NCBI GenBank assembly: GCA_046725585.1
Contig: JBKOYV010000160.1
Location: 2,742-66,741, forward strand
Length of the DNA: 64,000 nt
Source: Gemmatimonadota bacterium
GTDB taxonomy: Bacteria > Gemmatimonadota > Gemmatimonadetes > Gemmatimonadales > Gemmatimonadaceae
Direction of reading: 5' to 3'
Shown: positions 53,972-63,406 of the stretch, piece after piece
Layout of the letters: each line of letters opens with the position of its first letter
Numbering within the stretch: the first letter of the stretch is position 1
Program-made: the position numbers and the translations under genes
Notes under the pieces: model-generated
The model's database searches: none
The model's input: only the letters and a program-made list of their open reading frames with translations
Told to the model about the DNA's origin: nothing

Positions 53972-54487
53972 TCAGCCGTCCCTCGATGCCACGGGAGATC
54001 CGAGCCGGATCGTTGGCGTCACGGACCGGTACTGCTTTGCCAGGAGACGCCGGAAGAGATGCGCTTTCCTGTGCTTGGCGCTCGACACGAAGACGATCAT
54101 CGTCGATCTTCCCGCCGGAGAAACGCGCAGGTGCACGACGCCGCCCGGCACCGTCAGCGTGCAGGCGTCAGCGGCGCGGGCGGACGGCGCGCACAGCCGG
54201 GAGGCGCACTCCTCGATCACCGTCAGCACCGCGCCCGAGTCCTGACCGATCACCCACCAGCGCGACCGCACGAGCCAGCCTCCAAGCAGCACGACGATGG
54301 CGCCCGCCAGCACGCCTAACGACAAGTGTCCGCCGCCCAGCACGGTGATCGCCGCGGCCACCAGGACGTACAGCGCCGTCAGGAAAAAGACCCAGTCACC
54401 ACGCACGACCGTCGGCTCGCGCCGCGCGAGGACGACCACCGACGCCGCAATCACCAGTGCGACGTACGCGGCCGCCCAGCCGAGCAC
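53972..54487 (-). CDS. hypothetical membrane protein
   Basis: 171 aa with three N-terminal TM helices. The stop is 1 nt before the hydrolase start. Confidence 0.55.
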   Translation of the reverse strand: MLGWAAAYVALVIAASVVVLARREPTVVRGDWVFFLTALYVLVAAAITVLGGGHLSLGVLAGAIVVLLGGWLVRSRWWVIGQDSGAVLTVIEECASRLCAPSARAADACTLTVPGGVVHLRVSPAGRSTMIVFVSSAKHRKAHLFRRLLAKQYRSVTPTIRLGSPVASRDG

Positions 54488-54500
54488 GTCCCGGCTCCGT

Positions 54501-54935
54501 CTACTGGTCGAGAATCGCCTTCAGATTCTCGACCGCGCGAGCGCCTTCCGCCTCGTTCAACCTCTCGACTACCCCGGTTTGCATCTTCGCCAGGAGCGAC
54601 TGCGGCACGTCGTATGTCACATCGACCATCACCTTCACGCTATTGCCCTGTGGCTCGGCACTGTAGGTGAAGGTGCTCTTGATCCCGGTGGTCGTCTTGA
54701 AGCTGAATTTTTTCCCGCTCTCATAGCTCACCGTCTCGGCGCGGCCGGAGAATTCGACGCCCGCCATCACGAACGTCCAATCCCAGGACGTGCCCGCCTT
54801 TTTCGGATCGCCGTTGATGTTTGCGACAGACTTGAGCGGTCCGAGAAAGGCCGGATGGTTTCTCACATCGGCGATGTAGCTCATGATCTGATCGGCCTTG
54901 TTCGTGATGATCGCTGACTTGGCTACATGGGACAT
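54501..54935 (-). CDS. SRPBCC (START/polyketide-cyclase-like) family protein
   Basis: 144 aa. ..ADQIMSYIADVRNHPAFLGPLKSV.. and a beta-rich core. Visibly lower G+C than its neighbours. Confidence 0.65.
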   Translation of the reverse strand: MSHVAKSAIITNKADQIMSYIADVRNHPAFLGPLKSVANINGDPKKAGTSWDWTFVMAGVEFSGRAETVSYESGKKFSFKTTTGIKSTFTYSAEPQGNSVKVMVDVTYDVPQSLLAKMQTGVVERLNEAEGARAVENLKAILDQ

Positions 54936-55754
54936 CGTGCCCTCCGAAAATGCGACGCTGATTCGAGTGAACGCCTGCCGCCGGACGATAATCGCCAGAC
55001 CGTCGGCGCGGCTACTACCTTACTCGAACCTTCTGCGTTGAGCGAGACGTTGCTGGTCCGATTCCCGGTAGCCCGACACTCGGCGCGTGTACACCTCGTG
55101 ACCCCGGCGGTCGTCGAGCGGACGGTCGCGCGTCGCGGCGTGGAAGGAATCCTGACGGCCGGCGAGCGCGCGGCCTTCGACGCGTTCCCCCTCGAGCGAC
55201 GTCGCCGCGACTGGCTCGCCGGCCGTCTGGCAGCCAAGCGTGCCCTGCGCGCGACGTGTCGAGGTCGGGGCGGGACCGTACCGGCATACACCGCGATCGA
55301 GATCCGAAACGACGCCGACGGTGCGCCGGGCTTCGCCATCGATGGAAGCCCCGAGCTCGACGGACGCCTCGACATCTCCATCGCGCACTCAGACGGTGCC
55401 GCGGTCGCCGCGGTCGCGGACAGACTCGCGTCAGGCCCCGTCGGCGTTGACGTGGAGGTCACGAAACCACTGTCGATCGGTCTTGTGCGACGCGTGCTCC
55501 GATCCGCCGAGATCGACCGCCTTGGCGGAAGCTCGACCATTGATCCGACGCCACTCGAGATGTGGACCGCCAAGGAGGCGGCGATGAAGGCGGCGCGACA
55601 TCTGTGTGAAGCGCTCCGCGACGTGGAGCTCTCGTGGACGCGCGCGCGTACGATGCGTGCGCGCATCGTACGCGACGGGTTGCCGGCGCACTCGATCCTC
55701 GTCAGGCATCGGACTGCTGGCCCGTACACCATCGCCCTCGCACTCTATCGATGA
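54927..55754 (+). CDS. 4'-phosphopantetheinyl transferase
   Basis: ..RRRRDWLAGRLAAKRAL.., ..ISIAHSDGAAVAAV.., ..GVDVEV.., ..WTAKEAAMKA... The true start is probably downstream (TTG near 55035/55047), because ATG 54927 overlaps the divergent SRPBCC start. Confidence 0.75.
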   Translation: MGHRALRKCDADSSERLPPDDNRQTVGAATTLLEPSALSETLLVRFPVARHSARVHLVTPAVVERTVARRGVEGILTAGERAAFDAFPLERRRRDWLAGRLAAKRALRATCRGRGGTVPAYTAIEIRNDADGAPGFAIDGSPELDGRLDISIAHSDGAAVAAVADRLASGPVGVDVEVTKPLSIGLVRRVLRSAEIDRLGGSSTIDPTPLEMWTAKEAAMKAARHLCEALRDVELSWTRARTMRARIVRDGLPAHSILVRHRTAGPYTIALALYR

Positions 55755-56725
55755 CACGCGTCGGCATCGACGCCCTGACCTACTACCTGCCCGCGTCTGC
55801 CCCCACCCTTGCGGAGCTCGAGCAGCGTGGGGCGCTGCGCGGACCCGCATCCACGCTTGCCGGGTTCGGCTTCGAGCGGGCGCGCGTGGCCGAGTCGGAG
55901 AGTCACGTGGACATGGCGATGCACGCCGTGCGAACGCTCCTCGACGAGACGAACACCTCGCCCGATGAGATCGATCTCGTCCTCTATGCGGGCGCGCTGA
56001 CGTCCAGCTCCACCATGGAGTGCGCACCTGCCCCCGCGGGGTCGGTGCTGCAGCTGCGGGACCTCATGGACTTCTTCAAGTACCCGGTCTCACAGCTCCA
56101 GAGTGAGCTCGATCTCGTGAACGCATCGGTCGCCGGCATCGACCAGCAAGGGTGTGCCGCGATCTTCTCGAGCGTTCGGCTCGCCCGCGCGACACTGCTC
56201 GCGGAGCCCGACGTTCGCACGGTGCTGTGCGTGAGCGCGGACCGGTTGCCGCACGGTACGTCACGCGAGGTCGTTTACAATCTGGTGTCGGACGGTGCGT
56301 GCGCGATGCTCGTGCGCCGTGACGCGGCGCGAAACCGTCTCGTCGCCACGCACCAGGTGACCAAGGGGGCGTTCTGGGATTCCGGGTCGCTCGAGAACGA
56401 GATCATCGCCGCCTACTTTCCGACCGCACGCACCGTGATCGGGGACACGCTGCGGAAGGCAGGCGTCACCCTGAACGACATCCGGTGGGTGATCCCGCAT
56501 AACGTGTCCCTGCGCAGCTGGGAAATCCTGCTCGGGCTCATCGGGTGTCCCCGCGAAAAGCTGTTCAGCGCCAACATCGGGCGCGTGGGCCACACGATCG
56601 CCGCGGACAACTTCATCAACCTTCGCGACGCGACCGACGCTGGGCTCCTCCACACGGGCGATCTGCTGCTCCTCTTCACGTTCGGCTACGGGCTGAACTG
56701 GAGCTGCATGGTGCTCGAGCACTGA
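55751..56725 (+). CDS. KAS III (FabH)-like condensing enzyme/acyltransferase
   Basis: Trimmed to MTRVGIDALTYYLP.. (ATGA overlap with the PPTase). Active-site Cys ..DQQGCAAIF.., ..VIPHNVS.., ..VGHTIAADN.. (GHT where FabH has GNT). Confidence 0.8.
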   Translation: MTRVGIDALTYYLPASAPTLAELEQRGALRGPASTLAGFGFERARVAESESHVDMAMHAVRTLLDETNTSPDEIDLVLYAGALTSSSTMECAPAPAGSVLQLRDLMDFFKYPVSQLQSELDLVNASVAGIDQQGCAAIFSSVRLARATLLAEPDVRTVLCVSADRLPHGTSREVVYNLVSDGACAMLVRRDAARNRLVATHQVTKGAFWDSGSLENEIIAAYFPTARTVIGDTLRKAGVTLNDIRWVIPHNVSLRSWEILLGLIGCPREKLFSANIGRVGHTIAADNFINLRDATDAGLLHTGDLLLLFTFGYGLNWSCMVLEH

Positions 56726-56734
56726 CCGCCGCGC

Positions 56735-57844
56735 ATGACGAGCTCGCGGGTGCCGGAGCGGCGAACGATCCTCGTGACGGGCGGGACCGGTACGTTAGGC
56801 AGGGAGCTGGTCGCGCGTTTCGCCCGCGCAGATGACGCTTCGGTCGTCGTGCTCGCGCGCGGTACGGCGCATCCGCGTCCCGCCGTGCTGCCGCCAGGTG
56901 TCCGCGCGCTCGCGAGCGACGTGCGGCATGGTTCCACGCTCGGGCTCAGTGCGTCCGACCGCGCGATGCTTCGCGAGAGCGTCACCGACATTGTACACTG
57001 TGCGGCCGACACGACGTTCAACCGCCCGCTCGCCGACGCGCGCGCAACCAACGTGACGGGCACCGAGGCGGTCCTCGCGTTCGCAAAGGAGTGTCGGCGG
57101 CTCCGGCGGCTTGCCTGCTTCAGTACGGTGTACGTCGCGGGGCGCACGACGGGCTGCTTCACGGAGCACGATGTCGGCGGCGCCGACGGGTTCGTGAACA
57201 GCTACGAGCAGTCGAAGGCGGAAATGGAAGCGGTGGTGCGCGACGCGATGCGCCGGCTGCCGATCGCCATCTACCGCCTGAGCACGATCATTGGCGACGC
57301 TCGTACCGGCGAGGTCTCCGGGTTCAACGCGATCCATCACGCCCTGAGACTGCTGTATCAGGGCCTTGCCCCGATGGTGCCGGGTCGGGAAACCGGCCTC
57401 GTGGACCTCATCCCCGTGGATTTCGCTGCCGACGCGAGCCACCATCTCTTCGAGCGCGAGTTCACTGCCGGCGCGACGTATCATCTGTGTGCCGGCGCGG
57501 CGCATTCTGCCACGCTGGGAACCCTGCTGGATGCGACGATGGCGGCGTTCGAGCGATACCGCCCGGCGTGGCGCAAGCGCAGCATCGCCCGGCCCGCAAT
57601 CGTGGAGTTGGAGACGTACGAGCTGTTCGTACGCTCGGTGGAGGAGGCGGGGAATCAGGTGCTGCTGCAGGCGACGCGGGCCGTGCAGGCGTTCGCCTAC
57701 CAGCTCGCGTATCCCAAGGTGTTCGATGCTCGGTACGCCGAGGGCGTGCTCGCGCCGGCAGGCATCGCGGCGCCGAATGTGCTCGACTATTACGACGGGA
57801 TCGTGCGGTGGTGTATCGAAACAAACTGGGGGGCACAGGCATGA
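56735..57844 (+). CDS. NAD(P)-dependent SDR of the thioester-reductase / fatty-acyl reductase type
   Basis: ..ILVTGGTGTLGRELV.. Rossmann motif, catalytic ..NSYEQSK.. (YxxxK), about 370 aa as in stand-alone TR domains. Confidence 0.75.
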   Translation: MTSSRVPERRTILVTGGTGTLGRELVARFARADDASVVVLARGTAHPRPAVLPPGVRALASDVRHGSTLGLSASDRAMLRESVTDIVHCAADTTFNRPLADARATNVTGTEAVLAFAKECRRLRRLACFSTVYVAGRTTGCFTEHDVGGADGFVNSYEQSKAEMEAVVRDAMRRLPIAIYRLSTIIGDARTGEVSGFNAIHHALRLLYQGLAPMVPGRETGLVDLIPVDFAADASHHLFEREFTAGATYHLCAGAAHSATLGTLLDATMAAFERYRPAWRKRSIARPAIVELETYELFVRSVEEAGNQVLLQATRAVQAFAYQLAYPKVFDARYAEGVLAPAGIAAPNVLDYYDGIVRWCIETNWGAQA

Positions 57845-59034
57845 CGGGCTCGTCGCCGAAGGCGCTGCCGACCCCCGCTGAGCTCGAGCGGCAGCTCGCG
57901 CACTTCGTCAACGTCACGCTGCTGGGCGGAGGCAACGCGGTCGGGCGCGACACGCGCCTGTTCGAGGATGGGTACATGAACTCGCTCCGCATCCTCGATC
58001 TGATCGCGATGGTGGAGAAAACGTTAGGCGCGCGCATACCCGACCGCTCGGTTCGCCTCGCGAACTTCCGTACGATCGCCACCATCGTGCAGGTGTTTCA
58101 CCCGGACGCCGGCGTTGTCGCCGCCTCGGCCCCCGATCGGCTGTTCGAGCGCCGCGCTGACCGATCACGCTTTGCCTCGCCAGTCGAACTGCTTCGACAC
58201 CGGGGTGACGTCAGAGTCACCGGTGCCGGTCGCGTCGCCCTGGCTGGCCTCGCGCTCCAGGTCCTCGAGGCGGTCGATGACACCGTCGTGCGTTGGGCGG
58301 AATCCCTCGGCGCTTCCGATCACCGCTACCCGAGCCTGATCGACACGGCCATCCTCCGGCGTGCCGGGCAGACGCCATCCACGATGGTCATCCCGAGCGC
58401 GGATGTCATCCCGAGCGCTGATGACGAGGTTATGCTCGCCCCCGCCGTCTGCTACCACGCCTATCCCGAGTGGGCCGGCAAGGCCATCGGAGACACCCCC
58501 ACGGTCCTCACCGCGCGCGGCCACTGTTACCGCTACGAGGGCGGCCACCACGTCCCGCTGGAACGGCTGTGGGAGTTCACGATGCGCGAGATCATCGTGA
58601 TGGGAACACGCCAGCAGGTCGAAGACGTCCGGCAGTCACTCGTCAGGCAGGTCGCGACTCTCGTCGACACGCTGAAGCTGGACGCCTCGATCGAAACCGC
58701 CACCGACCCGTTCTTCACGGCCGGTGATGAGGGCCGCCGCCTCATGCAGCAGGCCGGCGCGCTCAAGTACGAGCTCCGCCTCGCCGTCGACGCGACGGGC
58801 CGCACGATAGCCGCCGCGTCGTTCAACCATCACCACGACTTCTTCGGCACGCGCTTCGGCATTCGCCTCGCCGACGACACCCCCGCGCACAGCGGATGCG
58901 TCGCGTTCGGGCTCGAGCGGTGGATGCTTGCGCTGCTCGCGCAGCACGGTGTTGAGCGAGACGCGTGGCCTAACGCGGTGCGAGCGTGGCTCGATGAGGC
59001 GCTCCACCGACCGGCTTGGGGATCCGGTGCGTGA
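57841..59034 (+). CDS. carrier-protein domain fused to a class-II aaRS-like (SerRS-type) amino acid:[carrier protein] ligase
   Basis: N-terminal PP-binding-like ..FEDGYMNSLRILDLIAMVEKTLG... C-terminal motif-2-like ..GHCYRYEGGHHVPLERLWEFTMREIIVMG.., motif-3-like ..HSGCVAFGLERWMLALL.. and Cys residues (..APAVCYHAY..) as in Zn-dependent atypical SerRS homologues. No tRNA-binding arm. ATGA overlap with the SDR. Confidence 0.7.
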   Translation: MTGSSPKALPTPAELERQLAHFVNVTLLGGGNAVGRDTRLFEDGYMNSLRILDLIAMVEKTLGARIPDRSVRLANFRTIATIVQVFHPDAGVVAASAPDRLFERRADRSRFASPVELLRHRGDVRVTGAGRVALAGLALQVLEAVDDTVVRWAESLGASDHRYPSLIDTAILRRAGQTPSTMVIPSADVIPSADDEVMLAPAVCYHAYPEWAGKAIGDTPTVLTARGHCYRYEGGHHVPLERLWEFTMREIIVMGTRQQVEDVRQSLVRQVATLVDTLKLDASIETATDPFFTAGDEGRRLMQQAGALKYELRLAVDATGRTIAAASFNHHHDFFGTRFGIRLADDTPAHSGCVAFGLERWMLALLAQHGVERDAWPNAVRAWLDEALHRPAWGSGA

Positions 59035-59918
59035 CTCGGCTGCACAACCGCACGCGCACGTCGGAGTCCATCCCGCGAAAGCTGCTCCGCCAGGGCAAGC
59101 TGCATCTCCTCCCCATCTACGCGCTCATGCGCACCAGCGACCTCGCGCGCGAAGGCATTGAGAACTCCGGCAGCTATCGATTCGCGGACCATGTCTATCG
59201 TAACGAGCCCAGTGGCCGCTTCGGCATCGGCCGCGCGCTCGATGCGGTGTTGCTGCGCATGCGCGGCGCCCGGTCCATGCGCAACCGCTTCCACCACACC
59301 CAGCGCGAAATCCTCGCTGCAGCCCGGACGCTCGAGTCGCGCAGCGCCACCGACCCGGTTGCGGCCAGCGCACCGTTTCGCGTACTGTCGATCCCGAGCG
59401 GTATCGCGCGTGACCTCGTCCTCGCTGCCCGGGCCGTCGAGCGGGAGCTCCCGGGGGTGTACGCGCGCAGCACATTTTTCGGCGTGGACCTCGACCCCGT
59501 GCCGCTCGAGCTTTCGCGTGACCTCGCGGGACGGGACGACCACTACTTCTTCACCCGTGGCGACGCCCTCGATCCGGCGTCCTTCCCCTCGGAGCTCGAC
59601 ATCATCGTCTCCACGGGACTCGGAGAATTCCTGAGCGATGACCTGCTCGTGCAGTTCTACACGAACTGTCGCAATCGGCTTCGGCCGGGCGGCACCTTCG
59701 TCACATCCGCCATGCAACCCGACCGCGTCGCGGACTACCTGATGCGTCAACTCGCGGAGCTTCATGCGCACTACCGCCGCGGCGATGAGATCATTCGATG
59801 GCTGCACGCGGCCGGCTTCCACGAGGTGTCGACACGCCAGGACGAGGTGGGCCTGCAGACGCTCGTCGTCGCGCGGCGTGTCGAGCGCCGGAGTGCCCCC
59901 CGCGGCCAGGAGGCGTGA
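59016..59918 (+). CDS. class I SAM-dependent methyltransferase
   Basis: ..FRVLSIPSGIARDL.., ..GVDLDP.., ..DIIVSTGLGEFLSD.., ..LRPGGTFVTS... Start is TTG 59016 or GTG 59031 (GTGA overlap). Confidence 0.65.
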   Translation: MGIRCVTRLHNRTRTSESIPRKLLRQGKLHLLPIYALMRTSDLAREGIENSGSYRFADHVYRNEPSGRFGIGRALDAVLLRMRGARSMRNRFHHTQREILAAARTLESRSATDPVAASAPFRVLSIPSGIARDLVLAARAVERELPGVYARSTFFGVDLDPVPLELSRDLAGRDDHYFFTRGDALDPASFPSELDIIVSTGLGEFLSDDLLVQFYTNCRNRLRPGGTFVTSAMQPDRVADYLMRQLAELHAHYRRGDEIIRWLHAAGFHEVSTRQDEVGLQTLVVARRVERRSAPRGQEA

Positions 59919-59921
59919 CAA

Positions 59922-60653
59922 GTGATCTACGAATCCCACCTGCGCGCCACCGAGGAAAACGCGTGGCCCCTCGACTCCTCCATCGCGTGGGATGCGATCG
60001 ACCTCGACGTCGCGCGCAGCGAGCGCGATCTACACCAGGCACTGCACGACGCGGCGCTCATCGAAGGGTACCTGCCGGTGTACGCCGCGCGGCTCATGCA
60101 GCTCCTCTGGGACGACGTCGATGCGACCGCCGTGCTCAGCATGGAGCTCTACGAGGGACTCAAGCACTTCACCGCGCTCGCCCGGTACCTCGACCGCGTG
60201 GGCTATCAACGCGAGGAGGTCTCCGAGGCGACGCTCGTGGCCGCGCGAGCGCGCGCGCTCGCGATCGCGTACGACAGGGCCGACCTCATCGCGCACCTCA
60301 CGAACTTCATGTGCTCGGAGCTCTTCGCCGCGTACTTCTTCCTGCGTATTGCCCGCCGCACTAACGAGCCGGTGCTGCGAGAGCTGTTAGGCTACATGTC
60401 GCGCGATGAGTTCCGTCACAGCGCAAGCGCCGGCGACGTCCTCAAGAAGCGCATCGATCGCGATCCCGGGATCGCTGCCCAGGTCCTCGCGGCCGCCGAG
60501 CGGTTTCGCCACTATGGGAGCGACGTCGTTCAGGTCCCCGTCGCCGAGGAGAACGACTTCGAGGCGATCATGGCCATGAACCGAAAGGTCCGCCTGCTGT
60601 GCGGCCTCGCGCCGACCGAGCATCTCAAGGAGTCCGTCCCCGGTGGAGATTAG
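59922..60653 (+). CDS. ferritin-like / acyl-ACP-desaturase-like putative diiron protein
   Basis: 243 aa, all-helical. ..MELYEGLKHF.. and ..SRDEFRHS.. (DExRH-type ligand motif). Confidence 0.55.
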   Translation: MIYESHLRATEENAWPLDSSIAWDAIDLDVARSERDLHQALHDAALIEGYLPVYAARLMQLLWDDVDATAVLSMELYEGLKHFTALARYLDRVGYQREEVSEATLVAARARALAIAYDRADLIAHLTNFMCSELFAAYFFLRIARRTNEPVLRELLGYMSRDEFRHSASAGDVLKKRIDRDPGIAAQVLAAAERFRHYGSDVVQVPVAEENDFEAIMAMNRKVRLLCGLAPTEHLKESVPGGD

Positions 60654-61497
60654 CGAAAACGATCTCTGGATCCTCAGCTACTACCGCGAGTCGGAGCTCG
60701 CGGGAAGTCTCGTCATGGGCCGCCTCGCGCGGGAAACGGACGACGACGACCTGCGTGTGCACCTCACCGAGCATTGCGCGGAAGAGGCCCACCACGCGTG
60801 GCTGTGGACGGAGACGATCCTCAAGGTGGGCGGTACCCCGAAGCGCGTGGCCGAGACGTACCAGACGCGCTACTACGCCGAGATCGGGATGCCGGCGAGC
60901 CTGCTCGAGATTCTTACACTCACACAAGTTTTCGAGCGGCGCGTAATACGGCATTTCCGCGCCCACCTCAAGTGGCCTGACGTGCACCCCGCGGTGGCCG
61001 AAACGCTCCGCCGCATGATCGAGGACGAGGTCGGCCACATCAGCTGGGTAAAGGACCGCCTCGATCGATACGCGGCCGAGAAGGGGGAAGCGATCGTGGC
61101 CGAAACGATGCGCCGCTTCACCGAAGTGGATGAACGCGTCTACGAAGCGGCGATGCGCTACCGGGACAACGCACGCGAGCTGCTCGACCCCGCGCTCCGT
61201 GGGAACGGACAGGCGCGCCCCCAGCCGACGTCGATCACGGCACCGTCGGCCTCACGCGCGACCACGAGCAATGCCGAGCTCCGCCACCTCGTGGCGAAGT
61301 CGCTCGGCGTGAACGACGACATCGTGCTCGATACGTCGTCGCTCCGCGACCTGGGTGTCAACTCGCTCGACCTCGTGGTGCTCGTGATGTCGATCGAGGA
61401 GCATTTCCACGTCGAGTTCGAGGCGAGCGACCTGGAGCGACTGCGGACGTTCGCCGACCTGGCGCGCCGCGTGACCGAGCTGACCGCGGTTCGTTAG
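60643..61497 (+). CDS. diiron four-helix-bundle (ferritin-like) oxygenase domain fused to a C-terminal acyl-carrier domain
   Basis: E..ExxH x2 ligand pattern (..YRESELAG.., ..CAEEAHH.., ..VFERRV.., ..IEDEVGH..). A linker is followed by ..LRDLGVNSLDLVVLVMSIEEHF.. (PP-binding). The stop TAG lies inside a CGTTAGGC copy. Confidence 0.7.
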   Translation: MEISENDLWILSYYRESELAGSLVMGRLARETDDDDLRVHLTEHCAEEAHHAWLWTETILKVGGTPKRVAETYQTRYYAEIGMPASLLEILTLTQVFERRVIRHFRAHLKWPDVHPAVAETLRRMIEDEVGHISWVKDRLDRYAAEKGEAIVAETMRRFTEVDERVYEAAMRYRDNARELLDPALRGNGQARPQPTSITAPSASRATTSNAELRHLVAKSLGVNDDIVLDTSSLRDLGVNSLDLVVLVMSIEEHFHVEFEASDLERLRTFADLARRVTELTAVR

Positions 61498-61513: not shown

Positions 61514-61786
61514 CTATTTCTTCGTGATGCCCGTCGGCTCGGTATGCTCGACCACGATGGTATAGTCCGACGCGAGCGCGGCAATGCCGGCGATGGCTGC
61601 CCAGAACGGGAGCAGCGCGGCACCCAGGAGGCCGGCGGTGAGCGGAATGTCCAGGATCGTGCGACCCTGCGCGTTCTTGATGACCACGCGCCTAACGGTG
61701 CCCTTGCGAATGATCTCTTTCAGCTTGGCCTTGAGGTTGGCGCCGCTGACCTTGAACTCTTCGGTGCGTGGGCCGGTGGTGGACAT
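61514..61786 (-). CDS. DUF4342-domain protein
   Basis: Trimmed to MSTTGPRTEEFKVSGANLKAKLKEIIRKGTVRRVVIKNAQGRTILDIPLT.. with a C-terminal hydrophobic segment. Confidence 0.65.
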   Translation of the reverse strand: MSTTGPRTEEFKVSGANLKAKLKEIIRKGTVRRVVIKNAQGRTILDIPLTAGLLGAALLPFWAAIAGIAALASDYTIVVEHTEPTGITKK

Positions 61787-61888
61787 GGTGCCTGGGTCGG
61801 AAAGGGAACGAGCCGGGATGGCGTGCCGATCTCCCGGCACGCCGCCCGTCCAGCGCCCAAGCTAGAGGAGCGCCGGCCCCTCGGCTAG

Positions 61889-62290
61889 TCAACCGGTCGG
61901 CTGCGCGAACATCACCACGTGCCCGCCCGGCTCCCGCACGCCGATCTCGTCCATCCCGTAGAACGTCTGGCGCCGCGGCACCACGACCTCCACACCTTCG
62001 AGCGCGCGCACGACGCTCTCGATGTCGCTCACCTCGATGAAGAACCCTGCTCCGTGCCCGTGCGCACGCGGCACGAGCCCCGCCGCGTCCTTCTCGACGC
62101 TCTCGTGCGTCTGGTACATCACCTCGACGTTGTCCTTGGCGAGGATGACGAATCCGAGGCGGTCGCCTTCCGGAACCTCGGCGGTTTTCGTGAACCCCAG
62201 CCGCTCCCAGAACGGCAGGCACGATTCGATGGCGTCTACCATGATCACGGGGCTCAGCTTCTTCATGGCGCTCTGTTGCATGGTCTGCAT
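61889..62290 (-). CDS. VOC/glyoxalase/bleomycin-resistance-family protein
   Basis: ..VIMVDAIESCLPFWERLGF.., ..GFFIEVSDIESV.., ..QTFYGMDEIGVREPGGHVVMF... Start uncertain (several in-frame ATGs). Confidence 0.75.
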   Translation of the reverse strand: MQTMQQSAMKKLSPVIMVDAIESCLPFWERLGFTKTAEVPEGDRLGFVILAKDNVEVMYQTHESVEKDAAGLVPRAHGHGAGFFIEVSDIESVVRALEGVEVVVPRRQTFYGMDEIGVREPGGHVVMFAQPTG

Positions 62291-62373
62291 GGTTGGTCGG
62301 TGCTCCGTTTCAGGTTGCTGGCAACGAAGCTATCGGCTTCGATGGCCGAGGTCTTGGAAAAATGGAACTGCTC

Positions 62374-62578
62374 GGGAGACGGGAAGCGGGAGGCGGGAGG
62401 CGGGAAGCGAAGGCGGGAACCGCGAACGGGGAACCGGGAGCCGTGCTGCTCTACCGGGAACCTGAGGATCCTTCGCTTCGCTCAGGATGACTAAGCCTGT
62501 CATTCCGAGCGCAGCGAGGAATCCTCATTCTCCTGGTAGAGGGCTCCTGTTCCCGGTTCCCCGTTCCCGGTTCCCGCC
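62374..62578. repeat. about 200-bp nested palindrome: GGGAAGC/GGGAACC heptad arms around two back-to-back hairpin-repeat half-sites (copy f, 62461..62528)
   Basis: The left arm GGGAGAC GGGAAGC GGGAGGC GGGAGGC GGGAAGC ..GGCGGGAACCGCGAACGGGGAACCGGGAG pairs with the right arm CTCCTGTTCCCGGTTCCCCGTTCCCGGTTCCCGCC. The core is ..GAGGATCCTTCGCTTCGCTCAGGATGAC-TAAGCCT-GTCATTCCGAGCGCAGCGAGGAATCCTC... Confidence 0.8.
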
Positions 62579-63406
62579 TTACCCCCGATGCCAAGCCGTT
62601 GGAGTAACCCCGGTCAGCTCTCGAAATTCATCGACCAGATGTGACTGGTCGTAGTACCCCACCTCCAGAGCCAGCGCGCTCCAGTTGATTGCCTCACCAG
62701 CCGGCAACGCGCGCGCCCGATCGATCACGCGGCCCAACCGCACCACCCGCGCGAACGTCTTCGGCGACACCCCCACGAGCTGCGAGAACCGCCGTGCCAG
62801 ATGCTGGCGCGTGACGCCTAACGCCGGAGCCAGCCGGGTGATGCCGAGACTTCCTCCGGCCGCGACGATCCGGCGTATCGCCTCGTCCACGTCGTACTGT
62901 GCCGACACAGCACTCGGCGACACGCGAGCCGCGAGCACCCGTTCGAGTGCCCGCACCCGCTCCACCGCGCCGGCGCTCACCGCGAGCGCGTCACGAACCT
63001 CGCCGGCATCGAGCCACAGCGCATCGAGCGGCACGCGCAGGTCCGTGAGCTCGTTCGCCGGGACGCTCAGGAACGCCGCGGCCTTCCCCGGGTGAAACCG
63101 CACGCCCACGAAGCACTCCGGCGATGCCCCGGGCTCGAGAACGAGCGCGCGCGTCATCGTCCCGACAGCCATCGCCGATTCCGGTTCGTCCGCCTGCCCC
63201 GAAAACCCGAGCACCACGTCGATGCACCCATCCGGCAGCACGCGGTGTACTGATGGGCTCGCGGGCTCGCGACCCACTGCCGGGTCGCGCGTCCAGAAGC
63301 ATTCCACGAACGGGCGAAGCTTCTCGGACGGCGCGTATTCGCGATAGCTCGCCGGCGTGAGCGGCTGCGGGCCGGGCGGCGGCGGTCCTCCGGCGGGGGC
63401 GGTCAT
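62579..63406 (-). CDS. AraC-family transcriptional regulator
   Basis: C-terminal double HTH (..ITRLAPALGVTRQHLARRFSQLVGVSPKTFARVVRL.., ..LALEVGYYDQSHLVDEFRELTGVTP..). Confidence 0.85.
   Translation of the reverse strand: MTAPAGGPPPPGPQPLTPASYREYAPSEKLRPFVECFWTRDPAVGREPASPSVHRVLPDGCIDVVLGFSGQADEPESAMAVGTMTRALVLEPGASPECFVGVRFHPGKAAAFLSVPANELTDLRVPLDALWLDAGEVRDALAVSAGAVERVRALERVLAARVSPSAVSAQYDVDEAIRRIVAAGGSLGITRLAPALGVTRQHLARRFSQLVGVSPKTFARVVRLGRVIDRARALPAGEAINWSALALEVGYYDQSHLVDEFRELTGVTPTAWHRG

Follow-up and report, generated by a model that had tools for sequence, protein, structure and literature searches.

A predicted diiron protein fused to its own acyl carrier domain in a compact biosynthetic gene cluster of Gemmatimonadota

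A 64,000-nucleotide stretch of a soil Gemmatimonadota genome (contig JBKOYV010000160.1 of assembly GCA_046725585.1, positions 2,742 to 66,741, GC content ~67%, assigned to Gemmatimonadaceae through its nearest relatives; hereafter the window) carries two overlapping genes for ferritin-like proteins, FerA and FerB, the second of which continues into an acyl carrier protein (ACP) domain, ACP2. Our favoured reading, to which we give about an even chance, is that FerB oxidises an acyl-type intermediate on ACP2, that FerA is a second oxidase, and that both tailor the products of a thiotemplate pathway that works without modules of nonribosomal peptide synthetases (NRPS) or polyketide synthases (PKS). 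It builds on observed domain identities, conservation of the ligand residues and of the carrier serine, gene order, the fusion itself, and co-inheritance of FerB with its carrier. The original prediction, made from the letters of the window, had singled out the two open reading frames (ORFs). Both are real (FerA at 59922-60653, FerB-ACP2 at 60643-61497), and all motifs it quoted were found in their places in FerA, FerB, and the carrier. We compared ~100 related loci drawn from genomes and metagenomes; the metagenome scan used a narrower alignment and returned only relatives of at least 63% identity.

FerB has a ferritin-like ligand set and no curated family

The FerB-ACP2 ORF (60643-61497, forward strand) encodes 284 amino acids and starts with GTG. 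Its features are as follows.

60643..61197 (+): FerB, small ferritin-like predicted diiron domain, residues 1-185 (Pfam, homologue alignment, AlphaFold2)
60694-6, 60784-6, 60793-5 (+): codons of the putative ligands E18, E48, and H51 (alignment)
60934-6, 61027-9, 61036-8 (+): codons of the putative ligands E98, E129, and H132 (alignment)
61198..61257 (+): flexible linker rich in Pro, Ser, Thr, and Ala, residues ~186-205 (model confidence, homologue alignment)
61258..61497 (+): ACP2, acyl carrier domain of the fatty acid synthase (FAS) type, with the Ser241 codon at 61363-61365 (Pfam, structure match, conservation)

Ferritin (PF00210) just passes its Pfam threshold on FerB-ACP2 (E 1e-5, 25.9 bits against a cut-off of 24.5), AurF stays under its own (E 6e-5), and Rubrerythrin and COQ7 are likewise sub-threshold. 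The motifs CAEEAHH (residues 45-51) and IEDEVGH (residues 126-132) hold two of the ligand pairs. Across 47 diverse homologues of 21-61% identity, H51 is invariant, Y14, E18, E48, E98, E129, and H132 are each kept in at least 90%, and each member of the six-ligand set E18/E48/H51/E98/E129/H132 is found in at least 44 of the 47. The AlphaFold2 model of FerB-ACP2 (mean predicted local distance difference test score, pLDDT, 86.6; input alignments for all models were built from database proteins) has a helical bundle at residues 5-181, with pLDDT >90 over its core, including additional C-terminal helices at 149-181. Residue pattern and modelled fold together point to a ferritin-like diiron-carboxylate protein of the E/ExxH/E/ExxH kind, as the original prediction had proposed for this ORF with its diiron ligand set in a four-helix bundle.

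An exhaustive search of 1.84 billion representatives with the ferritin domain alone showed the FerB family to be small (273 clusters at 50% identity) and to consist largely of stand-alone proteins of ~185-220 amino acids. No curated Pfam or NCBIfam model claimed the family in family-wide scans. Single-sequence searches of the PDB with FerB-ACP2 gave ACPs only, and we used profile searches instead. The FerB family profile matched a DPS-like protein (8w1d, 5e-10), bacterioferritins (~1e-7), and, over nearly its full length, MiaE (E 2.5e-7). Foldseek searches with the two-domain model returned mostly ACPs, and the ferritin part matched only PaaC and a thioferritin. PaaC is the highest-ranking match to the ferritin domain among those listed, and a weak one (template modelling score, TM, of 0.46, query-normalised, two-domain model). 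With a core of ~185 amino acids and the same six-ligand pattern, FerB resembles MiaE, COQ7, the cyanobacterial aldehyde-deformylating oxygenase (ADO), and BioE, the last being a small enzyme that accepts acyl-ACP and acyl-CoA thioesters (PMC12704756). Unlike these, FerB has a dedicated carrier, fused or adjacent, and no match at a curated threshold.

N-oxygenases of the AurF type are marked by a seventh ligand, a His placed four residues ahead of the Glu in the second ExxH (criterion taken from PMC12154687). The corresponding FerB position, 125, is I, M, V, or L in 47/47 homologues, and with the AurF model (PF11583) under its cut-off FerB does not look like an N-oxygenase of the AurF/CmlI/PvfB type.

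The most distant FerB homologue (P0199) adjoins a UbiA prenyltransferase gene.

FerB and its carrier form a conserved module

The original prediction had placed a carrier domain after the linker, which is what we find. The linker, ALRGNGQARPQPTSITAPSASRATTSNA, is disordered in the model (pLDDT <50 at residues 189-202) and has no residue conserved across 63 fused homologues. The carrier motif LRDLGVNSLDLVVLVMSIEEHF begins at residue 234. PP-binding (PF00550) is recognised by Pfam far above its cut-off (E 6.4e-14, 52.4 bits against 20.8), and the carrier is the only part of FerB-ACP2 that NCBIfam recognises, as a FAS-type ACP. Residues 206-283 are modelled as a four-helix carrier domain, with ~30% identity and a target-normalised TM score of ~0.9 to solved AcpP-type ACPs. 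A C-terminal domain lacking the phosphopantetheine serine in homologues would have spoken against this assignment; of 63 non-identical fused homologues, 62 have Ser241, within a (D/N/E)SL motif. Fold and conserved serine identify residues 206-284 as a genuine carrier domain. The gene for a 4'-phosphopantetheinyl transferase (PPTase) in the same operon is suggestive of its phosphopantetheinylation.

FerB and ACP2 share one ORF at 73 of 75 loci of the Gemmatimonadota clade, and the two exceptions look like frameshifts. In distant lineages (L013, L099, L101, L104) they are separate, adjacent, and often overlapping genes, and in L102/L103 a separate carrier gene lies immediately upstream of the FerB homologue. 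A hidden Markov model (HMM) of ACP2 gave 22.6-60.9 bits to five FerB-adjacent carriers and 2-10 bits to the carriers next to the ligase that is described below; the HMM of the ligase-borne carrier, ACP1, showed the reverse pattern, and FerB-adjacent carriers scored only 1-12 bits. By these scores the FerB-adjacent carriers form a lineage of their own, distinct from the ligase-borne carrier, and FerB would have its carrier lineage independently of the ligase. This is the strongest evidence here, drawn from sequence comparison, for FerB acting on a carrier-bound substrate, and the FerB-ACP2 fusion is best described as the joined form of a conserved two-gene module.

The fusion had originally been taken as a sign of on-carrier hydroxylation, desaturation, or N-oxygenation. 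On-carrier oxidation now has strong comparative support in the prevalence of the fusion, the adjacency elsewhere, and the separate carrier lineage; N-oxygenation is disfavoured, there being no seventh His.

In one Gemmatimonadaceae metagenome-assembled genome (L006, 582-kb contig), FerB/ACP2, ACP1/ligase, and other cluster genes appear split between frames, which looks like assembly indel errors rather than real gene fission.

FerA is a distant relative of the desaturases

The gene directly upstream encodes FerA.

59922..60653 (+): FerA, 243-amino-acid ferritin-like protein of the desaturase/R2lox/R2 structural class (profile, AlphaFold2/Foldseek, alignment)
60063-5, 60153-5, 60165-7 (+): codons of the putative ligands E48, E78, and H82 (alignment)
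60318-20, 60408-10, 60417-9 (+): codons of the putative ligands E133, E163, and H166 (alignment)
60510-2 (+): codon of H197, also invariant (alignment)

FerA alone has only sub-threshold Pfam matches (FA_desaturase_2, E 0.0056; Rubrerythrin, E 0.012). It scores 16 bits against the soluble acyl-ACP desaturase model PF03405, whose cut-off is 22.7, and the best score of that model in the FerA family is E 4.7e-6; none of 492 FerA homologues carries a precomputed Pfam domain. Single-sequence PDB searches gave marginal matches, and a profile of 36 homologues (38-93% identity) matched DesA2 of M. tuberculosis (1za0, E 1.4e-7). The AlphaFold2 model (pLDDT 90; predicted template modelling score 0.89) matches R2lox, castor stearoyl-ACP desaturase, and NrdB in Foldseek (query-normalised TM 0.55-0.66). 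The profile and Foldseek matches make the label "desaturase-like" a fair one, justified as a distant relationship and not as family membership. The original prediction of a second ferritin-like protein with a DEFRH motif (residues 162-166), akin to acyl-ACP desaturases, agrees with these results. Structure prediction, which it had suggested as a means of classification, puts FerA in the R2lox/desaturase/NrdB fold and the ferritin part of FerB nearest PaaC among the matches listed.

E48, E78, H82, E133, D162, E163, H166, and H197 are invariant in all 36 sequences. E48, E133, and E163xxH166 are canonical, and the first metal motif departs from the E/ExxH/E/ExxH pattern: it reads E78-x3-H82, and in the alignment with DesA2 the canonical ExxH Glu position is occupied by G79 or S79. 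Position 159, which corresponds to the seventh His, is I, M, or V in 36/36, and PF11583 stays under its cut-off, so that FerA, too, is not expected to be an AurF/CmlI/PvfB-type N-oxygenase.

FerA shares with the acyl-ACP desaturases (castor, DesA2) and R2lox the ferritin-like R2/desaturase fold and the second-half motif E...DEFRH. Those proteins act on or bind long acyl chains, which the desaturases take from ACP. FerA differs in length (243 amino acids against ~270-360; with a PF03405 norm of ~330-360 it is ~100 residues shorter), in its E-x3-H first motif in place of ExxH, and in an invariant F-x-H-x-G without known counterpart. This last motif, F-R-H-Y-G at residues 195-199 (60504-60518), lies outside the four core helices, with F195, H197, and G199 invariant in 36/36; it might supply a further metal ligand or serve for docking.

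The FerA and FerB genes overlap by 11 nucleotides (FerB GTG at 60643, FerA TAG at 60651-60653), which suggests translational coupling. The two proteins show only weak half-domain similarity, with an hhalign probability of 64%.

The gene cluster and its distribution

The cluster comprises genes for an SRPBCC protein, a membrane protein, a PPTase, a beta-ketoacyl-ACP synthase III (KAS III)-like enzyme, a thioester reductase (TR), a fusion of ACP1 to a ligase of the amino acid:carrier protein type (aa:CP ligase), a methyltransferase, FerA, and FerB-ACP2, with the last two at its end. The genes other than FerA and FerB are these.

53972..54487 (-): membrane protein, 171 amino acids, likely accessory cluster member (homologues at distant loci)
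54501..54935 (-): SRPBCC/Polyketide_cyc2 protein, 144 amino acids (PF10604, E 1.2e-8)
54927..55754 (+): PPTase, whose true start may lie downstream (ACPS, PF01648, E 3.5e-13)
55748..56725 (+): KAS III-like thiolase-fold enzyme with a Cys-His-His triad (ACP_syn_III_C, E 2.2e-20)
56735..57844 (+): TR, a stand-alone thioester/fatty-acyl reductase-like short-chain dehydrogenase/reductase (NAD_binding_4, E 1.9e-41; TIGR01746, E 2.3e-28)
57841..59034 (+): ACP1 fused to an aa:CP ligase resembling seryl-tRNA synthetase (SerRS) (NF005479, E 7.4e-51; PP-binding, E 3.9e-4)
~57841-58140 (+): ACP1 within that fusion, with an NSL motif at residue 48 and the Ser48 codon at 57982-57984 (sequence motif)
59016..59918 (+): S-adenosylmethionine-dependent methyltransferase (Methyltransf_20), start codon uncertain (PF12147, E 7.5e-10; conserved position)

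We found the cluster in Gemmatimonadota, where hundreds of soil metagenome contigs carry it, and in at least three further, more divergent lineages. A second FerA search, seeded with a 40%-identical orthologue, extended that family to Vicinamibacterales, and a search of a plasmid collection returned one distant Novosphingobium ferritin-like gene only. Wherever enough flanking sequence is available, the order KAS III, TR, ACP1, ligase, methyltransferase, FerA, FerB, ACP2 is kept down to 35-49% identity. The position of the methyltransferase is conserved with the exception of L104, and ACP1 and the ligase share one ORF at 33 of 36 loci; they are separate genes in L013, L104, and L007. L104 (6885-14207) is wholly unfused. 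Five overlapping genes encode ACP1, ligase, FerA, FerB, and ACP2 there without a change in relative order; the methyltransferase gene and that of an additional acyl-CoA dehydrogenase follow ACP2, and a PPTase gene is absent. L013 has a PlsC-type acyltransferase.

The ligase is a clear homologue of the Bradyrhizobium enzyme Bll0957 (3mey, E 4.4e-32), which aminoacylates carriers, and differs from it in being fused to a carrier and in lying within a ten-gene cluster with two predicted diiron proteins. Aligned with FabH (2ebd), the KAS III-like enzyme retains Cys and His but reads GHTIAAD for GNTSAAS, with His in the place of Asn. The L007 orthologue also has this His (GHMISGD).

A variant cluster in Obscuribacterales (L007, 3240-10561) encodes KAS III, an ACP, the ligase, TR, PPTase, and a stand-alone FerB of 40% identity, together with an acyl-CoA synthetase and an ICMT-type methyltransferase. 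In the place of FerA stands an AurF-family protein (PF11583, E 1.8e-30) that does have the seventh His, in the motif IHHLEEARH; a PDB search with it gave no match. FerB is thus the oxidase that stays the same, while the second one can be swapped. We rejected FerA as an orthologue of this AurF-like protein, there being no BLASTP similarity between them.

A FerB homologue of ~31-36% identity, with its carrier upstream, also occurs in an unrelated cluster that lacks the aa:CP ligase (L102/L103, 9756-20579). Besides NRPS modules, this cluster encodes an AMP-binding ligase that may be a fatty-acyl one, an aminotransferase of class IV, an acyl-CoA dehydrogenase, and a fatty-acid desaturase of the membrane type; its product may be a lipopeptide. 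At all loci with enough flank, FerB lies in a biosynthetic operon, P0199 being the sole exception.

A proposed pathway

The metal and its O2 chemistry, the substrate and the way it is oxidised, the sequence of steps, the product, and the route of hand-over from the ligase or KAS III are all inferred from these observations. Using O2, FerB would introduce a hydroxyl group or a double bond into an acyl-type intermediate that is bound to its dedicated ACP2 as a thioester. FerA, as an oxidase of the desaturase/R2lox class, would probably act on the same carrier-bound intermediate, maybe in a complex with FerB. In the proposed sequence, the PPTase would prime both carriers, the tRNA-synthetase-like ligase would put a small amino acid on ACP1, and the KAS III-like enzyme would couple this aminoacyl group to the acyl or malonyl group on ACP2. 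The two diiron proteins and the methyltransferase would then modify the product, which the stand-alone reductase would free as an aldehyde or alcohol, and, if hydrophobic as we suppose, it would probably be handled by the SRPBCC and membrane proteins. There are precedents for such steps: BioE is a small ferritin-like oxygenase working on acyl-ACP/CoA (PMC12704756), and HamC oxidises carrier-tethered valine ahead of reductive release (PMC11659414).

Hints of a lipid-like product come from the SRPBCC protein, the PlsC-type acyltransferase of L013, the acyl-CoA synthetase of L007, and the surroundings in L102, where an AMP-binding ligase, an acyl-CoA dehydrogenase, and a fatty-acid desaturase are encoded. 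A more specific version, which we regard as speculative and rather unlikely, is that the cluster makes a lipid similar to a sphingoid base, a long-chain amino alcohol or amino aldehyde, by a thiotemplated route independent of pyridoxal phosphate. A fatty acyl chain on ACP2 would be hydroxylated or desaturated by FerB and FerA, KAS III would then condense the oxidised chain with glycyl-, alanyl-, or seryl-ACP1, the reductase would take the thioester carbon to a C1 alcohol, and the methyltransferase and a lipid-binding SRPBCC protein would finish and handle the product.

Weighing the alternatives

Several observations weigh against on-carrier oxidation by FerB and FerA as we propose it. The ligand spacing of FerB is that of bacterioferritin-type ferroxidases, so its sequence alone is no proof of oxygenase activity, and the first metal motif of FerA is non-canonical (E-x3-H). 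The database matches of both families are all sub-threshold or generic (DPS-like, bacterioferritin, MiaE, COQ7, EncB), and neither family has a characterised homologue. Neither a reductase nor a ferredoxin to partner the diiron centres is encoded in the cluster. ACP2 cannot be strictly necessary, since L007 has FerB but lacks a second carrier. Finally, the data would fit either carrier as the source of the electrophile, with the other one bringing the nucleophile, in the KAS III reaction.

The ferroxidase-like spacing raises the question of whether FerB is a non-catalytic protein of iron storage, ferroxidation, or peroxide protection (bacterioferritin, Dps-like, or rubrerythrin-like) that merely accompanies the pathway, and its best PDB profile matches, to the DPS-like protein and the bacterioferritins, would fit. 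This likeness is one of sequence similarity only, and biosynthetic context and carrier fusion argue against such a role: six independent arrangements have FerB fused to, or next to, a carrier of its own; bar P0199, FerB sits in a biosynthetic operon at every locus with enough flank; its family is rare; and it has the extra C-terminal helices at 149-181. We consider a storage function barely credible. The same partnership bears on the idea that FerB or FerA acts after release, as cyanobacterial ADO does, so that the aldehyde loses one carbon. The fatty-acyl-reductase-like TR in the operon and weak profile and fold matches to aldehyde decarbonylase speak for it; the free aldehyde would be off the carrier, however, which would leave the conserved FerB-carrier partnership without purpose, and the ADO matches are far weaker than the others. 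We find it highly improbable.

Another unlikely alternative is that FerA and FerB form one heteromeric oxygenase, like PaaA/PaaC or the alpha and beta subunits of multicomponent monooxygenases, in which one is catalytic and the other structural or carrier-docking. The overlap of the two genes, the absence of any FerA without FerB, and the rank of PaaC, part of the phenylacetyl-CoA monooxygenase, among the FerB matches are all consistent with it, and PaaA/PaaC likewise pairs two ferritin-like subunits on a pantetheine thioester substrate. PaaC has lost its metal ligands, however, whereas FerA and FerB both retain complete putative sets; FerB occurs without FerA in L007 and L102/L103; and the cluster has no PaaB, PaaD, or PaaE partners. 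A different role for the diiron pair would be to turn seryl-ACP1 into aminomalonyl-ACP1, replacing the dehydrogenase pair of zwittermicin biosynthesis, and so to provide a decarboxylating extender for KAS III. The SerRS descent of the ligase would suit this, as would the His-His pair of KAS III, which is typical of decarboxylating elongation synthases, and the extra acyl-CoA dehydrogenase of L104, from a family that serves the conversion of seryl to aminomalonyl units in zwittermicin biosynthesis. It gives no account of the FerB-ACP2 fusion or of the separate ACP2 lineage, and for the aa:CP ligases that have been characterised, loading of Gly or Ala besides Ser is reported (PMC9437257). We judge it very unlikely.

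The pvf and ham pathways (pyrazine N-oxides, valdiazen, fragin) follow a like logic: carrier loading, on-carrier oxidation by a ferritin-like diiron enzyme (PvfB/HamC), and release by a reductase (PvfC/HamD). By analogy, the diiron proteins would N-oxygenate a carrier-bound amino acid and the reductase would free an N-oxidised amino aldehyde, leading to a pyrazine N-oxide, a diazeniumdiolate, or a related signal. The carrier-loaded amino acid at the start and the reductase at the end recall HamD/PvfC, with its adenylation, thiolation, and reductase (A-T-R) domains; ham, too, encodes another oxygenase and a "polyketide cyclase" (PMC11659414); L007 has a true AurF-family protein with the extra His; and weak AurF matches occur in 16/47 FerB and 5/36 FerA homologues. 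Against this, the seventh-His position is aliphatic in all FerB and FerA homologues examined, and both proteins are under the AurF gathering cut-off. Pathways of the pvf/ham type combine an A-T-R NRPS with an AurF N-oxygenase, and in the window there is no adenylation domain and no protein that passes PF11583. Loading is instead by a tRNA-synthetase-like ligase, the reductase is stand-alone, and there are a KAS III and a second carrier, neither of which pvf/ham has. The resemblance is one of logic only, and N-oxygenation of this kind is in our estimate a rather poor prospect.

Novelty and significance

Carrier-dependent ferritin-like oxidases are an already known kind. Such enzymes, among them acyl-ACP desaturases, PvfB/HamC, BioE, and CylC, are sought both for catalysis and as pointers to unusual chemistry. 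What is new is two uncharacterised families, FerA and FerB, that lie outside any curated family model, together with the covalent oxidase-carrier fusion, the non-canonical first metal motif of FerA, and a compact surrounding cluster that has an aa:CP ligase at its head. To our knowledge, no characterised ferritin-like oxidase has a carrier fusion. Literature searches found no description of the gene cluster or of an ACP-fused diiron enzyme, although most subscription journals lay outside their coverage and an earlier description is possible.

According to a 2022 review, the biological role of characterised aa:CP ligases is unknown (PMC9437257). The small, fixed gene set makes this question directly testable. 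If the sphingoid-like proposal were true, aa:CP ligases would have their first biological function, and FerA and FerB would represent two new families of diiron lipid oxidases that depend on a carrier, in soil phyla that are abundant and largely uncultured.

Genes at the edges of the cluster

The SRPBCC gene adjoins the cluster at nearly all loci with enough flank, including L013 and L104. The 171-amino-acid membrane protein has no Pfam match, and homologues of ~30% identity are encoded between the SRPBCC gene and KAS III in L053, L059, L075, and L077. Since both genes lie beside KAS III at these distant loci, they are probably cluster members. In the window they diverge from the operon; in L053, L059, L075, and L077 they share a strand and lie immediately upstream of KAS III.

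Among the flanking genes, we rejected those for DUF4342, VOC, AraC, alpha/beta hydrolase, LEA_2, and M1 peptidase proteins as cluster members, as they are syntenic in close relatives only. Downstream, on the reverse strand at 61514-63406 and probably outside the cluster, are genes for the DUF4342 protein, a glyoxalase/VOC protein, and an AraC-type regulator with DUF6597, and this regulator could control the cluster.

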